A DNA stretch of 14,152 bases, taken from positions 1 through 14,152 of the IMG/VR virus record IMGVR_UViG_648276651_000001; one strand, written 5' to 3'. This document shows positions 1 through 7,311 of the stretch, piece after piece (position 1 is the stretch's first letter; each line of letters opens with the position of its first letter). This stretch comes from a virus. Taxonomy: Duplodnaviria; Heunggongvirae; Uroviricota; Caudoviricetes. A program made the translations under genes and the position numbers. Below the pieces are notes generated by a model. It saw only the letters and a list, made by a program, of their open reading frames with translations, did no database searches and was not told the origin of the DNA.

Positions 1-6
1 ATTGAG

Positions 7-306
7 ATGTTGCGGGCGCAGTGTCGGATCGATATTGACGATGCAACCGAAGATGAACTGCTGACGCTGTATTTCACAGCTGCTCGGCGTCGCGCAGAGA
101 ACTTCATTAATCGGAAACTGTATGAAGACTCTGTGCCTGATACCGATCCAGACGGGTTAAACATTGCTGACGATATCCTCCTGGCGCTGATGCTTCTTGT
201 TGGGCATTGGTTCAACAGCAGGGAAGAAGCTTCCGATGTAAATAAAATGAGCATTCCCTTCGGCTTCACTTCGTTGCTTGAACCCTACCGATATATCCCA
301 CTTTGA
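7..306 (+). CDS. Head-tail connector (gp6-like) protein; 5' end may extend beyond the window
   Basis: 99-aa ORF beginning MLRAQCRIDIDDATEDELLTLYFTAARRRAENF, which resembles the N-terminal region of gp6-like head-tail connector proteins. The frame is open to position 1 (codons ATT GAG precede the ATG), so the true start may be upstream. Position directly before the head-closure gene fits. Confidence 0.55.
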   Translation: MLRAQCRIDIDDATEDELLTLYFTAARRRAENFINRKLYEDSVPDTDPDGLNIADDILLALMLLVGHWFNSREEASDVNKMSIPFGFTSLLEPYRYIPL

Positions 307-375
307 GGTGATTTATGGCCTGTGAAGGGTGTCTCCGTCGGCGTGAGTGGTTAAAAAAGTGGACGAAAATAGCCT

Positions 376-573
376 ATGAACGAGCAACTGGTAAACGCGC
401 TGATAGCAGCGCTGAGAGAACAAACAACAGCACAGCGAGAGCAGACGGAAGCGATAAACCGCCTGGCTGAGTCTAACGTCGCCCTGTCCGATGTGATTAT
501 CCAGTCGCTTGCCGGCGATCTCGATGAGGCGCCAGAGCAGCAAACCTATCTGAGCGGGAAACCCGGGGGGTGA
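376..573 (+). CDS. Small hypothetical phage protein (65 aa), predicted helical
   Basis: ORF whose stop (571-573) sits 1 nt before the ATG of the next gene at 575, suggesting coupling. No recognisable family. A competing 51-aa ORF (315-470, other frame) has a better Shine-Dalgarno, so the call is uncertain. Confidence 0.35.
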   Translation: MNEQLVNALIAALREQTTAQREQTEAINRLAESNVALSDVIIQSLAGDLDEAPEQQTYLSGKPGG

Positions 574-574
574 T

Positions 575-907
575 ATGCAGGCCGGAAAATTGCGTCACAG
601 GATCACCCTGCAGGAACCGGTCAAAGAACAGAACCCGACAACGGGAGCCGTAATTAATACCTGGCGCGATGTCGCAACCCTTTGGGCCGAAGTCGCTCCT
701 TTATCCGCACGTGAGTTTATCGCCGCCCAGGCCTCTCAGGGCGAAGTTACCACCCGGATAACGATTCGTTACCGTGAGGGTGTTACCCGCAAACATCGGA
801 TCCTGTTTCGTAGCCGCATCTACAACATTGAGGGCGTTTTACCTGACCCCCGGAGCGGCAGGGAATACCTGACACTGCCGTGTTCAGAGGGGGCTAACGA
901 TGGCTGA
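575..907 (+). CDS. Phage head closure / head-tail adaptor protein (Phage_H_T_join-like)
   Basis: 110-aa protein with LRHRITLQ ... WAEV ... TTRITIRYREGVT ... RIYNIEG, matching the conserved pattern of head-tail joining proteins. GGGGG Shine-Dalgarno upstream. Its stop overlaps the next gene start. Confidence 0.7.
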   Translation: MQAGKLRHRITLQEPVKEQNPTTGAVINTWRDVATLWAEVAPLSAREFIAAQASQGEVTTRITIRYREGVTRKHRILFRSRIYNIEGVLPDPRSGREYLTLPCSEGANDG

Positions 908-1439
908 TGGCGTGGAAGTAAACCTGACCGGCCTTGATTCCGTCCTGGGGAAACTGGATGCCGTCTCACAGGTCACTCGCGATAAATCCGGTCGTGCAGC
1001 GCTGCGTAAAGCGGCAAACGTCATCAGGGACAGAGCGCGCAATAATGCCGCGCGGGTTGATGATCCTCTCACCAAAGAGGCTATCTACAAAAACATTGTG
1101 GTCAGTTTCAGCAGCAAGGCATTTCGCAGAACCGGCGATCCAACGTTTCGTGTCGGGGTGATGGGCGGCGCCAGGCAATACGCCAATACAAAGGCCAACG
1201 TCCGAAAAGGCAGGGCGGGTAAAAGTTTTAACACTGCCGGAGATAAAGGTAATCCCGGCGGGGATACCTGGTACTGGCGATTCCTGGAGTTCGGCACAGA
1301 ACATGCTGCAGCGAGGCCAATAATTAGGCCTGCACTGAATGGGGTCGATGCCGATGTGATTAACGTTTTTGCTTTGGAGCTGGAAAAGTCCATCGATCGC
1401 GCTGTACGACGGGCGGCTAAAAAAGGAACTCCGGTATGA
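900..1439 (+). CDS. HK97 gp10-family phage protein (tail component)
   Basis: 179-aa protein containing WRFLEFGTEHAAARPIIRPAL, consistent with the EFGT...RPF.RPA signature of the HK97 gp10 family. GAGGGGG Shine-Dalgarno 5 nt upstream of the ATG at 900; 8-nt overlap with the previous gene. Confidence 0.65.
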   Translation: MADGVEVNLTGLDSVLGKLDAVSQVTRDKSGRAALRKAANVIRDRARNNAARVDDPLTKEAIYKNIVVSFSSKAFRRTGDPTFRVGVMGGARQYANTKANVRKGRAGKSFNTAGDKGNPGGDTWYWRFLEFGTEHAAARPIIRPALNGVDADVINVFALELEKSIDRAVRRAAKKGTPV

Positions 1440-1801
1440 TTGCTCCAATATTTGCAGTTTGCGCAGCCAGCCAGGCAGTCAGGGATTTGTTAGGTTCTAC
1501 TCCCGTGCGGCTTTATCCGTTCGGTATGCAGGACGACAATATCGTTTATCCCTACGCAGTCTGGCAAAACGTAGGTGGCTTCCCTGAAAATTATCTAAAC
1601 CAGCGGCCAGATGCAGATCACTATTCTCTGCAGGTTGATGTCTATGGTGATACTGACACCGACGTGATCGCCGTTGCCCGTGCTTTACGCGACGCAATTG
1701 AGGGCAAGGCCTATATCACCCGATGGGGTGAACAAAGCCGCGATCCTGAAACAATGCGATACCGCTATTCCTTCGATGTTGACTGGATAACGACCAGATA
1801 A
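1436..1801 (+). CDS. Tail completion / tail terminator-like protein (DUF3168-like)
   Basis: 121-aa ORF with ATGA overlap to the gp10-like gene, immediately upstream of the major tail gene. Size and position fit a gp11/DUF3168-type protein. Assignment is by synteny plus weak recollection of the family. Confidence 0.5.
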
Positions 1802-1817
1802 CCAACAACCACAAACT

Positions 1818-1844
1818 GACCCGCCTTGTGCGGGTTTTTCTTTT
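1818..1844 (+). terminator. Hairpin plus T-tract (intrinsic terminator-like) upstream of the major tail gene
   Basis: Stem CCCGC (1820-1824), loop CTTGT, stem GCGGG (1830-1834), followed by TTTTTCTTTT (1835-1844). Confidence 0.5.
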
Positions 1845-1857
1845 ATGGAGACAAAAC

Positions 1858-2349
1858 ATGTCTGTATTAACGCAAGGCACGCAGTTTTTTGTGCTCAAGT
1901 CTGGCGTGGTCAGCGAGGTTGAATGCATCACCAGTTTCAACCCCGGCGGGAACCCTGCCGATCAGATTGAAGATACCTGTCTGAGTGAACGGGATTCCAG
2001 AACCTACAAAAAGGGGCTTAAAACGCCTGCGGCCGCAACCGTCGGGCTTAACGCTGATCCGACGAACGCCAGCCACATTATGTTGCATGGCCTCGCTGAA
2101 GCGAATGACCAGACGCCGTTAACTTTTGCGGTTGGCTGGTCAGATGGAACCAGTGTCCCGACAGCCGCCGCTCCTGGCGCTGAGGATGCTGTTGATGGCC
2201 TGGTGCTGCCATCGGATCGCACCTGGTTCATTTTCCAGGGTTACGTTTCTGACTTCCCGTTTGATTTTCAGGGTAACGCTGTTGTGACGACCTCCGCCAC
2301 GATCCAGCGGTCTGGCTCTTCCGTATGGGTGCCTAAGGCCGCAGCGTAA
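1858..2349 (+). CDS. Major tail (tail tube) protein
   Basis: 163-aa ORF starting at ATG 1858 (GGAG at 1848-1851), not at the track start 1828, which overlaps the hairpin. Position after the tail completion gene and before the chaperone pair; flanked by two hairpin terminators, as is typical for the most abundant tail component. Confidence 0.7.
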
Positions 2350-2356
2350 TTAATAT

Positions 2357-2381
2357 GCCCGGTTATCCGGGCTTTTCTATT
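2357..2381 (+). terminator. Intrinsic terminator downstream of the major tail gene
   Basis: Stem GCCCGG (2357-2362), loop TTAT, stem CCGGGC (2367-2372), then TTTTCTATT. AGGAG Shine-Dalgarno of the next gene follows. Confidence 0.6.
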
Positions 2382-2392
2382 CAGGAGCTGAA

Positions 2393-2746
2393 ATGCAACT
2401 TACTCTCGATACGTTAAAAGAAACCGGTGCTTTTACCGGGCGTCCCGTGGAAAAAGAAATTAAGTGGAAAGGCCGTGACGGGAAAGAGCATATCGCAACC
2501 GTCTATGTGCGCCCGATGGGCTACCACACCACTAAAGCTGAACTGCTGGCGTATAACGGGAAATCGGACCCGATTGCTGAGCGCATTGCGGCGCATATTT
2601 GCGATCAGGACGGCGCCCCAGTGTTTACCGCGGCTGACATTCTTGGGACTGCTACCCCGGATCGTGGGGCGCTGGACGGACCGATTGTTATGGCCCTCCT
2701 GGCTGCAATTCATGATGTAAACGAACTGGGAAAGACTACGAGCTAA
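2393..2746 (+). CDS. Tail assembly chaperone (lambda gpG analogue)
   Basis: 117-aa ORF directly after the major tail gene. Contains the slippery heptamer G GGA AAG four codons before its stop, with an overlapping -1 frame continuing for about 100 codons. Confidence 0.7.
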   Translation: MQLTLDTLKETGAFTGRPVEKEIKWKGRDGKEHIATVYVRPMGYHTTKAELLAYNGKSDPIAERIAAHICDQDGAPVFTAADILGTATPDRGALDGPIVMALLAAIHDVNELGKTTS

Positions 2747-3042
2747 CCGGCGAGGATGAATTCTGGTGCGAACTGGTGATGAACGGCATCGGCGGCCGCA
2801 CCATTGCAGAGGCTCAGGAGCGGATGAGTCGCAGGGAATTTCTGGTTTGGCTCAAGTACCGTGAGAAGTACGGACCGCTCAATATCATGATGCGTACTGA
2901 GTGGGGGGCTTCGCTGGTGGCTTCTGTCCTGGCTAACATCAATAAGGCAAAAAACACGCCGCCGTTCAAGGTAAGTGACTTTGCACCGCACATCAACGAA
3001 GCGCCATTATCTCTGGAAGAAGCTATGAAAAGTTGGCATTGA
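2393..3042 (+). CDS. Tail assembly chaperone fusion (gpGT analogue) made by -1 frameshift at 2728-2734
   Basis: Joining the G-like frame up to the slippery site with the -1 frame gives about 216 aa. The extension (…DYELTGEDEFWCELVMNGIGG…SRREFLVWLKYREKYGPLNIMMRTEW…) has the aromatic-rich character of lambda T / DUF4035-type domains. The track ORF 2776-3042 starts at a GTG inside this extension and has no Shine-Dalgarno of its own. Confidence 0.65.
2728..2734 (+). promoter_or_regulatory. Programmed -1 ribosomal frameshift slippery site (G GGA AAG)
   Basis: In the G-like frame the codons are CTG GGA AAG (2726-2734), an X XXY YYZ heptamer identical to the lambda G/GT site. The -1 frame is open from 2716 (after TGA at 2713-2715) to the stop at 3040-3042. 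Confidence 0.75.
2913..2920 (+). other. Chi site (5'-GCTGGTGG-3')
   Basis: Exact octamer on the + strand. Confidence 0.6.
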
Positions 3043-3098
3043 TATCATTTATTTGGTTATATTCTCTCTGGGATGATTATATTGATACCGAGGGGATT

Positions 3099-3470
3099 AT
3101 GATAAAGAAAGCAGCTGTTGTTTTTACTGTAATGTTTTTAGGTGGCTGCGTTAGTGCGCCAGATAAGGCGGAGCTAAGCCGCGCCGATTATGGGAAGTTA
3201 CCTGATAATTATCAGGAAATAATTAAAAATAGTATGTCGGCGCGCCTTAAGGACCCTTATTCTGCACGATATGATTTCAATGAACCTTTCAAAGGCTGGT
3301 GCAAATCAGGATTTACAACTTATTACGGATGGTTAGTTCCTTTTACTCTTAACGCTAAAAACAGTTATGGCGGTTATGTTGGTAATAAGTCTTATCTGTA
3401 TCTTGTTAATCAAAATAGCGCCACTGACTTTACTGCATCCTTCCAAATCGGTGGGTGCGGTAAAAGTTAA
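3099..3470 (+). CDS. Predicted lipoprotein (moron between chaperone and tape measure genes)
   Basis: ATG at 3099 preceded by GAGGGG. N-terminus MIKKAAVVFTVMFLGGC is a signal peptide with lipobox L-G-G-C; Val at +2 suggests outer-membrane sorting in enterics. Two further Cys in the mature part. Visibly AT-rich relative to neighbours and followed by its own terminator. Family not recognised. Confidence 0.6.
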   Translation: MIKKAAVVFTVMFLGGCVSAPDKAELSRADYGKLPDNYQEIIKNSMSARLKDPYSARYDFNEPFKGWCKSGFTTYYGWLVPFTLNAKNSYGGYVGNKSYLYLVNQNSATDFTASFQIGGCGKS

Positions 3471-3492
3471 ATTAGCTAAATCATAAAATAAA

Positions 3493-3517
3493 CCTCGCTC
3501 CTGCGGGGTTTTTTATT
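3493..3517 (+). terminator. Intrinsic terminator after the lipoprotein gene
   Basis: Stem CCTCGC (3493-3498), loop TCCT, stem GCGGGG (3503-3508; one G-U pair), then TTTTTTATT. Confidence 0.55.
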
Positions 3518-3533
3518 GCCTGGAGAAAATTCA

Positions 3534-5969
3534 ATGGCTGGCAAGTCCCTTGGTACGTTAACAATCGACCTGATCGCAAAAGTGGGTGGATTTGTTCAGG
3601 GTATGGACAAAGCCGAAAGATCTTCTCAAAAGTGGCGTGACCAAGTAAAAAAGGATGCTAAAGAGGTTAGTTCTTCAATCATTGCTGTGGGTGCTGCGGC
3701 GGCTACAGCAGCTGTTGGCATTGGTGCTGCTGGGTTAGCCATAGTTAAAAATACTGCACAGCAGGTTACAGAAGCTGATCGCTGGGCAAAATCTCTTAAA
3801 ATGTCCACCCAGGATTTGTTATCCTGGCAATACGCTGCTGAACAAGCCGGTTTAACCGGTGACAACATAGCCGATATTTTCAAAGACATTAATGATAAGG
3901 TCGGTGATGCGGTCCTGAATAAATCAGGTGAGGCAGCTCAGGCGCTGGATACTTTGGGGCTTTCAGCTCAGAAGCTGGCTCAGCAATCCCCAGACAAGCA
4001 GCTGATGGCAATCAGTGAAGCATTACAGAAAATCCCCACTCAGGCCGGGAAAACAAATATTCTCGAAAGCCTGGGTAATGACCTGTCAAAAATGCTGCCG
4101 TTGTTCGACAACAACAACGAGAAGCTGAAACAGTTTATCCAGCTATCAAAAGATTTTGGTGTCGCACCACCGCAAGAAGATATTGATAACCTTGTTAAGG
4201 TTAATCAGTTCTTTCAGGATATAGAGACTAGCGCCCGCGGTCTTAAAATGGAAATTGCTTCGGGGCTGGCTAAGGTTGACCTTACACCATTGCAGGATGG
4301 GCTTGATGACATTCGTGACGTCTTCACCGATCCTGCTGTTCTTCAGGGGCTATCAGACCTGGTTGGTGAAGCCATAAGCCTTGCCGGGGTTGTGGGACGT
4401 ATTGCTGGTGGCTTGGGGGCCATTGCTACTTATACCCGCTCGCGTATAGGTGCTGTATCTGGTAATTATAATGCTGCTGATGAAAGTGATATTGCACAGA
4501 GAATTGAATTCCTTAACAAACGAGGGAATCAAAGTAAGGAGCAAAAAGACGAATTAGAATTTTTAACTAAACGTCTTCAATTTCTTCGCGCGATAAAATC
4601 AAGCATGACTCCGGAGCAGGTAGATAGAGGAGCGAAAGGGCTCTCGTCTCTACTTTCTGATCTTGGCATTGATACGTCTAAAGATAATGATTTTTCGTTG
4701 GGCAAAGGGGAGTCTAACCAGAATCAGCCAAAAACAAAACCAAAAAGCAATCCGACTGACAATGCTTTTAAAAATCGACTTCTTGACTTACAAAAGCAAG
4801 CTGCACTTATTGAAACAACAGGCAAAAAAACAGCTGAAGTTACAGAGCTTGAAAAAATAAACTTCGATATAAGCAGTGGTAATCTAAAAAAACTTTCCGA
4901 AGGTCAAAAAGACCAGTTGCGAACAGCTGCAAAGTTTCTTGATTCTAAGAAGGAAGAACTTCGTCTTAATCAGGAAAATGCGAAAGTTGCCGAGTACGTT
5001 TCAGGTCTTGAAAGGCAGAATAAATTAATTAAGCAGGGATATGATAGTGAATTTATTGGGCGTTATTCTGGAGATCGGGAACGTAGCCGGATGCAAGAAC
5101 GCAACAGTATTCAGCAGGAGTATGAAGGGAATCGCGAGGATTTATTAAAGCAATACCAATCTGGTGATATTTCTAAAAGTCTTTATGACGCTGAAACTGA
5201 AGCTTTGCAAGATGCACTGAATAAGAGGTTAGAAATTCAAAATGATTATTATAAGCAACAGGATGAATTACAGAATGATTACAGTGCTGGGTTAATTTCT
5301 GGTTTTGCTGCACAGGCTACTGCTGCGATGGATTTGTACTCCACAATGCAGCAAGTTGGGGCGCAAACATTCAGCAGCATGACCGACATGATTATAACTT
5401 GGGCAGAAACTGGAAAGTTGAACGCTCAAGATTTTGCAGCGACCTTTATACAGTCTGTAGGTGCGGCAATGCTGCAATATGCCGCTGCTCAGGTAGCAAT
5501 GGCGGCGCTTAATGCCTTCACTCAATGGATAGGTGTTCCTTACGTTGGCCCGGCGGTGGCTCCGGCTCAAGCAATTGCAGCAGCTGCAGCAGCTGGCGTA
5601 TTCATGACGGCGATCGGGTCGGCATTGCACGGCCAGGCTCACGACGGTATCGACTCTGTGCCTGAAACAGGAACTTGGCTCCTGCAGAAAGGTGAGCGCG
5701 TTACGACAGCTAAAACCAGCGCCAAACTTGACGCCACTCTGGATCGAGTTGCAAACCAGTCAACAGGCGGCGGCGCGATTTATTCACCCACAATCAATAT
5801 CCCCATAAATGGTAACCCTTCCGATGCGACAGTAGCCCTCGTGCGCAAAGCCGCTGCTGAAGGTGCTGAGCGCGGCTACCGAAAAGCTGTCAACTCGGTG
5901 ACTACTGGGCAAGGTGATCTACACAGGGCACTTATGGTGAAAACCAACTCGGGGAGGAAAATTCGCTGA
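3534..5969 (+). CDS. Tail tape measure protein
   Basis: 811-aa ORF starting at ATG 3534 (GGAG at 3522-3525), not the TTG at 3516. Ala/Gly-rich N-terminal segment, long coiled-coil middle and hydrophobic Ala-rich C-terminal part are typical of lambda-family tape measure proteins. Stop overlaps the next start (TGATG). Confidence 0.85.
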   Translation: MAGKSLGTLTIDLIAKVGGFVQGMDKAERSSQKWRDQVKKDAKEVSSSIIAVGAAAATAAVGIGAAGLAIVKNTAQQVTEADRWAKSLKMSTQDLLSWQYAAEQAGLTGDNIADIFKDINDKVGDAVLNKSGEAAQALDTLGLSAQKLAQQSPDKQLMAISEALQKIPTQAGKTNILESLGNDLSKMLPLFDNNNEKLKQFIQLSKDFGVAPPQEDIDNLVKVNQFFQDIETSARGLKMEIASGLAKVDLTPLQDGLDDIRDVFTDPAVLQGLSDLVGEAISLAGVVGRIAGGLGAIATYTRSRIGAVSGNYNAADESDIAQRIEFLNKRGNQSKEQKDELEFLTKRLQFLRAIKSSMTPEQVDRGAKGLSSLLSDLGIDTSKDNDFSLGKGESNQNQPKTKPKSNPTDNAFKNRLLDLQKQAALIETTGKKTAEVTELEKINFDISSGNLKKLSEGQKDQLRTAAKFLDSKKEELRLNQENAKVAEYVSGLERQNKLIKQGYDSEFIGRYSGDRERSRMQERNSIQQEYEGNREDLLKQYQSGDISKSLYDAETEALQDALNKRLEIQNDYYKQQDELQNDYSAGLISGFAAQATAAMDLYSTMQQVGAQTFSSMTDMIITWAETGKLNAQDFAATFIQSVGAAMLQYAAAQVAMAALNAFTQWIGVPYVGPAVAPAQAIAAAAAAGVFMTAIGSALHGQAHDGIDSVPETGTWLLQKGERVTTAKTSAKLDATLDRVANQSTGGGAIYSPTINIPINGNPSDATVALVRKAAAEGAERGYRKAVNSVTTGQGDLHRALMVKTNSGRKIR
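4404..4411 (+). other. Chi site (5'-GCTGGTGG-3')
   Basis: Exact octamer on the + strand. Confidence 0.6.
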
Positions 5970-6448
5970 TGGCTATCACCACGACACTTTACTACCCCGC
6001 TGATGTTCTCCCTGGGCCGTTGAAAGACGGCTTTGGAATGAAGCCGAAATCCCCGGTAAAAATCACCGAGCTCGTAACGGGGCGCAAAAGAATACGACGT
6101 GGCTATACCTCTGTTCCTACGGAAACAGATGTAGCCTGGATTTTTACTGACGCGCAGGCCCAGGCTTTTGAGGCATGGTACCGGGATGTTCTAAAAGACG
6201 GCAGCGCCTGGTTTAACATGCCGCTACTGACGCCAGTGGGCCAAAAAAATTACGTTTGCAGGTTTAACGATATTTATGAGGGGCCTACGCCTGAAGGAGG
6301 CTTGTACTGGCGGTATTCAGCATCCCTTGAGTTATGGGAACGGCCGCTGCCGGCGGTTGGCTGGGGAGAATATCCGGAGTGGATTGTGGGGAGTTCGTTA
6401 CTCGATATAGCTCTGAACAGGGAGTGGCCTAAGCATGACAGCGATTAA
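5969..6448 (+). CDS. Minor tail protein (first gene after tape measure; distal-tail/gpM-position analogue)
   Basis: 159-aa ORF coupled to the tape measure stop. Assigned by position only; no family motif recognised. Confidence 0.45.
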   Translation: MAITTTLYYPADVLPGPLKDGFGMKPKSPVKITELVTGRKRIRRGYTSVPTETDVAWIFTDAQAQAFEAWYRDVLKDGSAWFNMPLLTPVGQKNYVCRFNDIYEGPTPEGGLYWRYSASLELWERPLPAVGWGEYPEWIVGSSLLDIALNREWPKHDSD

Positions 6449-6917
6449 CCGCCTTTATGCGTCCTCCGGGTCGGAGGTCATCATTGGTACGTTGCAGATC
6501 GATATTGGCGGCCAGAAGCATTATCTGTGTGAGGGGTACGAGGACATTACGGCGGTTACCGAGAGGGGCGAAACCGTAACGTTTATTGCCTGTGCCATTG
6601 TCCTATCCCTTCCTGCCAGAAACGAAGACGGGACGCAGGACCTGAAGTTTATGCTGTGCAACGTCGACGGCGTTGTATCCACCGCTATACGCAAGGCCAT
6701 TGATGCCATGTCCACTGCCAGCATCACGTTCAGGAAATACATTTCCACTGACCTTACAGCGCCAGCGGAGCCGCCTTACGTCATGCCGGTTAAAGGAGGC
6801 TCCTGGACACCGCTGACTGTAAACGTCACTGCTGGTTTTAAAAATATGCTCGATTATGCCTGGCCACGTGACAGGTACACATTGACGTACTTCCAGGGTC
6901 TTCGTTACACACGATAG
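6435..6917 (+). CDS. Minor tail protein (possibly DUF1833-like)
   Basis: 160-aa ORF overlapping the previous gene by 14 nt; GGAG upstream. Synteny between the tape measure gene and an NlpC/P60-like gene matches tail-tip assembly genes. The DUF1833 guess comes from size and context only. Confidence 0.4.
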   Translation: MTAINRLYASSGSEVIIGTLQIDIGGQKHYLCEGYEDITAVTERGETVTFIACAIVLSLPARNEDGTQDLKFMLCNVDGVVSTAIRKAIDAMSTASITFRKYISTDLTAPAEPPYVMPVKGGSWTPLTVNVTAGFKNMLDYAWPRDRYTLTYFQGLRYTR

Positions 6918-6924
6918 GTATCCC

Positions 6925-7311
6925 ATGATCAACATTGATAAATACCTGACCGTCCGCTGGCAGATGGGCGGCCGCACTTTTCCTGTTCTCGACTGCTACG
7001 GCATTGTACATGAGGTCCGCCGGGACCTGGGGCTGCCTGAATGGCCCGCGTTTGAGGCTGTGATTAAAGAGCGTGGCAGCACTGAAATGGGGGAAGTCTG
7101 CGAGAGTTTTTCGCGTGACCTGACTCACTGCAAGCCGTGCAACGGTGCGGTTGCCGCCTGCTATATGGGAAATATGATCGGCCACCTTGGTGTTGTCGTC
7201 GAAATGGAGGGAGCGCTTTACGTTATTGAATGTAATCCCCGGCGCAACGTAACCATTCTTCCCCTGGCGCGTTTTGAACGCCAGTTTCTGAAAGTGGAGT
7301 ATTACCAGTGA
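6925..7311 (+). CDS. Tail-associated NlpC/P60 (C40) family peptidase-like protein (lambda gpK-domain analogue)
   Basis: 128-aa ORF with candidate catalytic Cys in LDCYGIV near the N-terminus and His in MIGHLGVVV, at the spacing expected for a minimal NlpC/P60 fold. GTGA overlap with the J-like gene. Confidence 0.5.
   Translation: MINIDKYLTVRWQMGGRTFPVLDCYGIVHEVRRDLGLPEWPAFEAVIKERGSTEMGEVCESFSRDLTHCKPCNGAVAACYMGNMIGHLGVVVEMEGALYVIECNPRRNVTILPLARFERQFLKVEYYQ

Follow-up and report, generated by a model that had tools for sequence, protein, structure and literature searches.

The window analysed here is a stretch of 14,152 nucleotides (positions 1 to 14,152 of the IMG/VR virus record IMGVR_UViG_648276651_000001), the + strand of which carries a siphophage tail module of the temperate Klebsiella/E. 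coli type. Its subject of interest is the gene for the tail tape measure protein (TMP), and within this gene a stretch at 4440-5290, called the block below, which is AT-rich and which a first-pass annotation had regarded as a possible recombinational acquisition that lengthens the tail. Our analysis points to a different history. We consider it likely that the block is an integral, ancestral segment of TMPs of the lambda gpH family, and that the AT-rich tract to which it belongs is a lineage-wide trait of this group of alleles. The features of the locus are collected in Table 1.

The TMP gene follows a G/T pair of chaperone genes and precedes the tail-tip genes, and a moron open reading frame (ORF) lies between the chaperones and the TMP, as in HK97. 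Both sequence characters of a lambda-family (gpH-like) TMP, PF09718 and phrog_2854, are found in the protein; phrog_2854 spans it as a whole (amino acids (aa) 1-810 versus 1-854 of 855, E 3e-295), and 11 of the 19 PHROG families that it matches are annotated as TMP. The order of chaperones G/T, TMP and tip proteins is likewise that of other TMPs of the lambda gpH type (PF09718; PHROG 2854, 339 and 24), such as KPP5665-2 gp15, mEp235 H, HK97 gp16 and T1 gp38, and the central core motifs are common to mEp235, HK97, the Stx phages, PMG1 and T1. Located 3' of the TMP gene are the genes for a phrog_384 protein, a DUF1833 protein, a minor tail protein and a 1022-aa GpJ-like protein (GpJ FNIII-A), followed by fibre genes. 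Unlike M and L of lambda, these tip genes are of the DUF1833/phrog_384 type, as in D3- and PMG1-like phages.

Among deposited phages, the closest are KPP5665-2, KpF5 and ST16-OXA48phi5.3 of Klebsiella and vB_EcoS-716R3 and vB_EcoS-733R5 of E. coli. The TMP gene has a DNA identity of 89% to KPP5665-2 and of 88% to KpF5, its protein is 93% identical to that of KPP5665-2, and the TMP of one IMG/VR contig (L022) is 99-100% identical at the protein level; the block itself reaches 99% identity at best among the IMG/VR loci. The gene is a standard lambda-family TMP gene of a known kind, and near-identical copies are already present in public collections. Conserved flanks border its variable centre. 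To the left, the gpG-like chaperone gene has 96-100% nucleotide identity in KPP5665-2 and ST16-OXA48phi5.3; to the right, positions 5622-5842 are 91-96% identical to the same two phages, and TMP aa 700-811 (GC content at third codon positions, GC3, 0.48-0.50) are nearly invariant in a four-sequence alignment of the closest phage TMPs.

Table 1. Features of the window, with the evidence for each (positions in the window; BIC, Bayesian information criterion).
Feature	Position	Strand	Evidence or value
Tail assembly chaperone, lambda gpG analogue	2393-2746	+	Pfam PF16459 Phage_TAC_13, E 9e-31
Segment compared with KPP5665-2	2393-4560		identity to KPP5665-2 99.0%
gpT-like frame of the chaperone	2776-3042	+	Pfam PF06223 Phage_tail_T, E 1.4e-8
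AT-rich tract, real extent of the anomaly	3001-5594	+	BIC-best GC3 segmentation of all + strand codons
Moron-like ORF, predicted 123-aa lipoprotein, between chaperone and TMP genes	3099-3470	+	ATG at 3099, lipobox
Terminator-like hairpin and T run, just 5' of the TMP start	3490-3511	+	consensus match only: 9-bp stem, 5 G-C pairs, TTTTATT
TMP gene, 811 aa, lambda gpH family	3534-5969	+	phrog_2854, PF09718, ATG start (MAGKS...)
GC3-normal island, TMP aa ~90-202	3801-4139	+	GC3 0.549 versus 0.334 elsewhere in the tract, permutation p = 0.01
Hypervariable linker, TMP aa ~283-403, bounded on either side by mosaic joints	4380-4742	+	alignments, predicted disorder
Block of the first-pass annotation, TMP aa 303-586, deepest part of the tract, with many polar and charged residues	4440-5290	+	GC, GC3, codon usage
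Recombination transition zone inside the block	4561-4790	+	identity to KPP5665-2 93.0%
Conserved core, predicted helical, TMP aa ~404-586	4743-5291	+	motifs TTGKKxxEVTE, FDIxSGxL, QSGDI, YY..D
Segment compared with KPP5665-2	4791-5620		identity to KPP5665-2 76.0%
Tape_meas_lam_C domain, TMP aa 582-654	5277-5495	+	Pfam PF09718, E 3.7e-14; 53 bits versus cutoff 23
Segment compared with KPP5665-2	5621-5840		identity to KPP5665-2 91.8%
Conserved TMP C-terminal region, aa ~697-811, near-normal GC, right flank of the variable centre	5622-5969	+	identity to relatives
Segment compared with KPP5665-2	5841-7311		identity to KPP5665-2 66.2%
High-GC3 segment (0.69 versus 0.56)	11502-12883	+	GC3 segmentation; spans the 649-aa fibre-like gene's 3' part and most of the ORF after it
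273-aa ORF in a low-GC region (~12900-14152, 0.35-0.45 GC), 3' of the fibre genes	13253-14074	-	sub-threshold O-antigen polymerase/ligase similarity

The AT-rich centre of the TMP gene, which the first-pass annotation had noticed by eye, is real. Total GC content is 0.380 in the block (4440-5291), compared with 0.479 in TMP aa 1-302, 0.533 in aa 587-811 and about 0.535 in the flanking genes, and the GC3 of the block is 0.282 versus 0.573 in the other + strand genes (binomial p = 4e-23). The codons of the block are shifted to AT-ending forms: CTG accounts for only one of 30 leucine codons versus 50% in the reference genes, AAT for 80% of the asparagine codons and CAA for 50% of the glutamine codons, and neither ACC nor ATC occurs. 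At the four-fold sites of the block, all alleles examined have T at 0.41-0.50, A at 0.23-0.30, C at 0.09-0.17 and G at 0.07-0.18. A preference for optimal codons was considered as the source of these T-rich sites and rejected: CTG, AAC, ACC and ATC are under-represented, whereas TTA, ATA, AAT and CAA are over-represented.

Part of the low GC content lies in the protein itself. The residues K, E, Q, N, D and R make up 48.9% of the block versus 33.8% of the N-terminal and 23.1% of the C-terminal part, and at position 4440 a Gly/Ala-rich hydrophobic segment gives way to a Lys/Glu-rich one. The sharp step in total GC at this position is largely an amino-acid effect, and GC3 is already at 0.28 in the 50-codon window (aa 276-325) that straddles the start of the block. 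One could go further and interpret the low GC content as a pure by-product of amino-acid composition, devoid of any historical or selective signal. The abundance of charged and polar residues and the coincidence of the GC step with the change of segment would suit this explanation, as would an expected GC content of 0.479 (computed from the amino acids of the block and the codon usage of the window's other genes), which is lower than that of the flanking genes. However, the observed value is still lower than this expectation, and GC3 falls far short of the 0.552 expected in the same way. The tables of four-fold sites and of codons per amino acid display a strong synonymous shift, and the mEp235 TMP keeps a GC3 of 0.48-0.58 in windows over aa 301-600, so that we find this explanation hardly credible. 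Roughly one third of the GC deficit of the block is due to amino-acid composition and two thirds to synonymous codon choice.

The block is not a discrete compositional unit; it is the deepest part of one larger tract. The BIC-best segmentation returns a tract with a GC3 of 0.362 inside and of 0.558-0.559 on either side, and an independent two-boundary scan places it at 3004-5595 (log-likelihood ratio 53.9). The tract takes in the lipoprotein moron ORF and the first ~690 TMP codons and exceeds the block by about 1.4 kb leftward and about 0.3 kb rightward. Its left edge, at about 3001, is situated near the end of the gpT-like frame, and from about 3020 the similarity of vB_EcoS-716R3 and ST16-OXA48phi5.3 to the window is lost. 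The block appears only as the next split, which the BIC disfavours: a six-segment GC3 segmentation returns 4440-5324, almost exactly the coordinates that had been read by eye, with a GC3 of 0.275 versus 0.377 in the remainder of the tract when the island described below is excluded (post hoc Fisher p = 0.0045). The host-like composition that had been attributed to the N-terminal part of the gene does not hold: aa 1-302 have a GC3 of 0.44 (p = 4e-6), and the initial 90 codons one of 0.34.

The most significant heterogeneity within the tract is a GC3-normal island in the N-terminal part of the TMP gene. The island overlaps the stretch in which similarity to vB_EcoS-716R3 (90-92%) and to a locus with a TMP of the vB_KppS-Ant type (L173, 93-97%; see below) is highest. 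In the equivalent windows (aa 91-210), GC3 is 0.35-0.43 in vB_EcoS-716R3 and 0.28-0.35 in ST16-OXA48phi5.3. The island may be a recently exchanged patch.

The distribution of the block among relatives bears directly on its origin. It is found in colinear position in each of the four closest phage TMPs (811, 811, 844 and 815 aa), and in the four-sequence alignment the extra 33 aa of the 844-aa TMP of vB_EcoS-716R3 are situated C-terminal to the block. The block is carried by 80 IMG/VR loci at 57-99% identity, with TMPs of 807-818 or 844-848 aa, and the TMP of mEp235 (806 aa) is 48% identical over aa 1-592, block included. A scan of species-representative genomes added 14 loci from other species, all Enterobacterales or Pseudomonas, with TMP-containing ORFs of 756-867 codons and at most 44% identity. 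No part of the protein can be aligned as widely as the 3' half of the block: the tblastn matches to the Stx phages, HK97, Fels-1, PMG1 and YMC11/02/R656 are centred on aa ~397-642. T1 gp38 (PDB 9L9P chain B), the only relative with a solved structure at E < 1e-5, aligns to aa 393-693 (E 4e-11). Because the block is present at constant length in more than 80 related loci as well as in distant homologues, we interpret it as not inserted. As far as these alignments indicate, it adds no length relative to the relatives, nor does this phage in particular appear to have acquired it.

Mosaic exchange in the centre of the TMP gene, which the first-pass annotation had invoked, is supported by switches in identity to KPP5665-2 and by the centres of the vB_KppS-Ant type. 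The identity to KPP5665-2 drops along the locus in several steps (Table 1), and this pattern implies at least one crossover within the block, by which a KPP5665-2-like left arm was joined to a different right arm. Mosaic joints are found at ~4375, 4560-4800, ~5300 and ~5620, and none coincides with the edges of the block at 4440 and 5290. ST16-OXA48phi5.3 is unrelated over aa ~290-410 and vB_EcoS-716R3 over aa ~590-700, and the four-fold-site identities by segment are incongruent among the alleles. In the region of the Tape_meas_lam_C domain, vB_EcoS-716R3 and the TMPs of the vB_KppS-Ant type have a divergent sequence instead. Such sharp switches of nucleotide identity between otherwise near-identical genomes are also known from lambdoid mosaics; in the lambdoid phages HK97 and HK022, modules are exchanged in mosaic fashion and morons deviate in base composition.

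A search with the N-terminal 290 aa yielded a further class of TMPs, consisting of vB_KppS-Ant and the loci L172-L178, with lengths of 765-768 aa. With the TMP of the window they share the C-terminal ~115 aa and, at 83-85% identity, aa 1-282. The centre in this class is barely related (32% over ~100 aa), 46 aa shorter and also rather AT-rich, with joints at ~4350-4380 (in L173) and ~5600. The TMP centre is therefore exchangeable, the unit of exchange being aa ~283-697 rather than the block as first reported. Natural TMPs fall into three length classes of 765, ~811 and ~845 aa, which stem from replaced central or C-proximal segments and not from gain or loss of the block.

The record of vB_KppS-Ant itself is unusual (LR881103.1, locus at 1-6827). 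It measures 16.5 kb, is labelled 'induced prophage' and has terminase genes, then the 765-aa TMP gene and then an integrase, with no head or tail-tube genes between terminase and TMP. It could be an artefact of assembly or else an unusual element, perhaps defective or satellite-like.

The exchangeability of the centre, with a replacement that is 46 aa shorter, could be taken to favour the acquisition originally proposed, i.e., that the 850-bp block is a discrete foreign cassette in an otherwise host-like TMP gene and lengthens the tail. The joint at ~4350-4380 lies only ~60-90 bp to the left of the block, and the GC3 of the block is the lowest in the gene. Nevertheless, this origin is very improbable. 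In addition to the constant length of the block, seen in more than 80 relatives as well as in the mEp235 TMP at 48% identity, its 3' half is the most conserved region of the family, the AT-rich tract reaches beyond it on both sides, the right-hand joints are at ~5300 and 5620, and yet another joint falls inside the block at 4561-4790. The block lacks flanking repeats, and the centre of the vB_KppS-Ant type is AT-rich too. The alignment to related TMPs, in which an insertion with sharp boundaries at the block edges had been envisaged, displays no polymorphism in presence or absence, and the AT-richness is shared among the relatives.

The AT profile of the window recurs in KPP5665-2, vB_EcoS-716R3 and ST16-OXA48phi5.3, the AT-rich upstream slot included. 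In the 80 IMG/VR loci, the block has a GC content of 0.375-0.407 and a GC3 of 0.26-0.36, while the flanks have 0.50-0.58 GC. By contrast with the first ~690 codons of this allele group, which are AT-rich (GC3 ~0.36) relative to the rest of the phage, the TMP genes of mEp235, Stx2-1717 and PMG1 have a GC3 equal to that of their own flanks; HK97 displays a mild dip. AT-rich coding is thus no requirement of the protein or of its assembly. By the refutation criteria of the first-pass annotation the outcome is mixed: a significant break exists, every homologue has the block, and the deviant composition is common to this allele group only.

Most TMP genes recovered from the genomes of other species are compositionally normal. 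Rouxiella badensis is a clear exception and Pseudomonas lundensis a weaker one. The TMP of the former (CP114060.1, 5182-7449) is 42% identical over the core, and its gene has a GC3 of 0.27 in the matched part and of 0.33 over the whole ORF, within flanks of 0.515 GC. AT-rich TMP genes thus recur outside the clade of the window. Searches for a low-GC donor of the block remained without result: blastn against phages matched only the same TMP family, and the protein search gave TMPs only, mostly from Klebsiella, among them a single 198-aa fragment assigned to Providencia rettgeri, whose 594-bp contig is too short to be of use. A full-text literature search on tape measure, GC content and mosaic retrieved nothing specific to this AT-rich phenomenon, and a search on chaperone binding by lambda gpH retrieved a general review on frameshifting only.

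With regard to structure, the alignments divide the block into two parts. In the hypervariable linker, ST16-OXA48phi5.3 is unrelated (identity 0.21-0.46) and vB_EcoS-716R3 dips at 4607-4741. The motifs of the core, on the other hand, are found family-wide and stand out in an alignment of 12 sequences as columns with little or no variation. AlphaFold2 modelling of aa 290-650 as a monomer predicts mostly helix, with disorder at aa ~377-406, at low confidence (mean predicted local distance difference test score, pLDDT, 54), and the predicted helices, subject to the same low confidence, are long within the core. Two peptides had been quoted as heptad-like in support of a coiled coil, and both are present, at aa 325-355 and aa 566-583. 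The periodicity ascribed to them was not recovered: the best-register heptad score ranges from z -1.4 to +1.9 across aa 303-586 relative to shuffled sequences, in a crude, home-made test with 35-residue windows rather than a predictor of the COILS or MARCOIL type, and no 3.5-residue Fourier peak was found in the block. The coiled-coil label was dropped on these two tests.

The possibility of a hidden non-coding or embedded feature in the block was rejected on scans for RNA families, repeats and ORFs. An Rfam E-value scan of 2700-6200 gave no match, and Tandem Repeats Finder reported only two trivial arrays of ~2 copies each. No direct repeats flank the block, and repeat finding returned short two-copy matches only, consistent with chance. 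The alternative-frame and antisense ORFs (4663-4860 on the + strand; 4353-4544, 5292-5642 and 3626-3889 on the - strand) have no Pfam match near threshold.

In lambda gpH, in-frame deletions and duplications in the central region change tail length proportionally, by ~0.15 nm per residue, and the block resembles this length-determining region in being part of a central polar segment, predicted to be largely helical, between conserved N- and C-terminal parts. Applied to 811 aa, the lambda figure would give a tail of ~120 nm. The trimeric TMP of T1 fills the tail-tube lumen, and only residues 921-956 are resolved (PMC11945409). The block consists of a hypervariable linker, predicted to be partly disordered (aa ~303-403), and a conserved core, predicted to be largely helical (aa ~404-586), in front of Tape_meas_lam_C. 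By analogy with these two phages, it would reside in the tube lumen as part of a TMP trimer and would add tail length per residue. Its AT-richness combines the amino-acid effect with a lineage-wide synonymous shift across the moron and the first ~690 TMP codons, in a tract flanked by the G/T chaperone genes to the left and by the C-terminal region of the TMP to the right. We suggest that this moron/TMP cassette evolved in a phage gene pool richer in AT, or circulates through such a pool, and that homologous recombination reshuffles it among Klebsiella and E. coli phages.

However, several observations weigh against this interpretation. A low-GC donor with AT-rich flanks was not found, and flanks had 0.46-0.58 GC in every recovered locus. 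AT-richness is retained even in near-saturated alleles, whose four-fold identity to the window is 0.39-0.44, where composition by itself would give ~0.32. Had the tract simply been imported and then ameliorated, GC3 should have risen, and AT-rich alleles at such saturation leave room for active maintenance. In addition, the ruler role of the segment is drawn from lambda and T1 only, the secondary structure comes from a monomer model with a pLDDT of 54, and the label 'Klebsiella' derives only from the names attached to relatives.

Alternatively, we have to consider that the AT-richness of the moron-plus-TMP tract (~3001-5594) is actively maintained, either by selection or by a local mutational bias. 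Silencing of moron and TMP in the prophage by proteins of the H-NS type might be involved, or the pacing of transcription and translation of a long chaperone-dependent protein. AT-rich four-fold sites in all alleles, the near-saturated ones included, in genomic backgrounds of 0.50-0.58 GC are consistent with maintenance, and so is the independent AT-rich TMP gene in the Rouxiella badensis prophage. Yet homologues of the same length and architecture in mEp235, Stx2-1717, PMG1, Atlantibacter, Franconibacter, Citrobacter, Pseudocitrobacter and others have a normal GC3; the codon shift is generic, with no recognisable optimal-codon or pause pattern; and circulation of the cassette through hosts of lower GC content would yield the same pattern. 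We therefore regard maintenance as unlikely, if worth keeping in mind, and continue to favour an ancestral segment with a lineage-wide composition.

The ORF between the chaperone and TMP genes begins with MIKKAAVVFTVMFLGGC, which reads as a signal peptide and lipobox. It matches phrog_2320 (function unknown) and is AT-rich (GC3 0.33-0.34); its best Pfam match (E 0.03) falls short of the threshold, and NCBIfam gave none. The slot at 3033-3470 holds unrelated ORFs in vB_EcoS-716R3 and ST16-OXA48phi5.3. In the HK97 record, gp15 is annotated as a moron in the same slot, which in the window is taken by a variable, AT-rich, terminator-followed ORF; the two have only this position and a moron-like anatomy in common. 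Unlike HK97 gp15, the ORF of the window encodes a predicted lipoprotein without similarity to it (BLASTP gave no alignment at E <= 100), and the deviant composition continues through most of the essential TMP gene. A role of this ORF in superinfection exclusion is only a guess.

Further features are found 3' of the TMP gene. In the records of KPP5665-2 (MF695815.1) and vB_EcoS-716R3 (ON470622.1), tail-tip genes are annotated as 'alkanesulfonate ABC transporter permease', 'ArsR family transcriptional regulator', 'formate/nitrite family transporter' and 'kinase' (the GpJ-like protein), and the moron slot as 'obscurin'; these annotations look like transfer errors. The high-GC3 segment among the fibre genes is another compositional module, in the host-range region, and the 649-aa fibre-like protein has PHROG matches over its first ~140 aa only. 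The 273-aa ORF at the end of the window has matches that are all below cutoffs (Wzy_C E 1.5e-6, O-ag_pol_Wzy E 2e-5, TIGR04370 E 9e-6), and from this similarity it may be a serotype-conversion moron.

Although real, the block is an ordinary feature of composition within a known gene family and matters little beyond correct annotation. It also carries a lesson of method: a GC step inside a gene can stem largely from amino-acid composition, and inferring horizontal acquisition needs GC3 or four-fold sites together with relatives. The mapped joints and the three length classes could guide the engineering of tail length and of chimeras in temperate Klebsiella phages. AT-rich coding across deeply diverged alleles is a small, mildly unexplained and testable oddity. 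If selection proved to be its cause, it would represent a constraint at the nucleotide level on an essential structural gene, without counterpart in some of its homologues.

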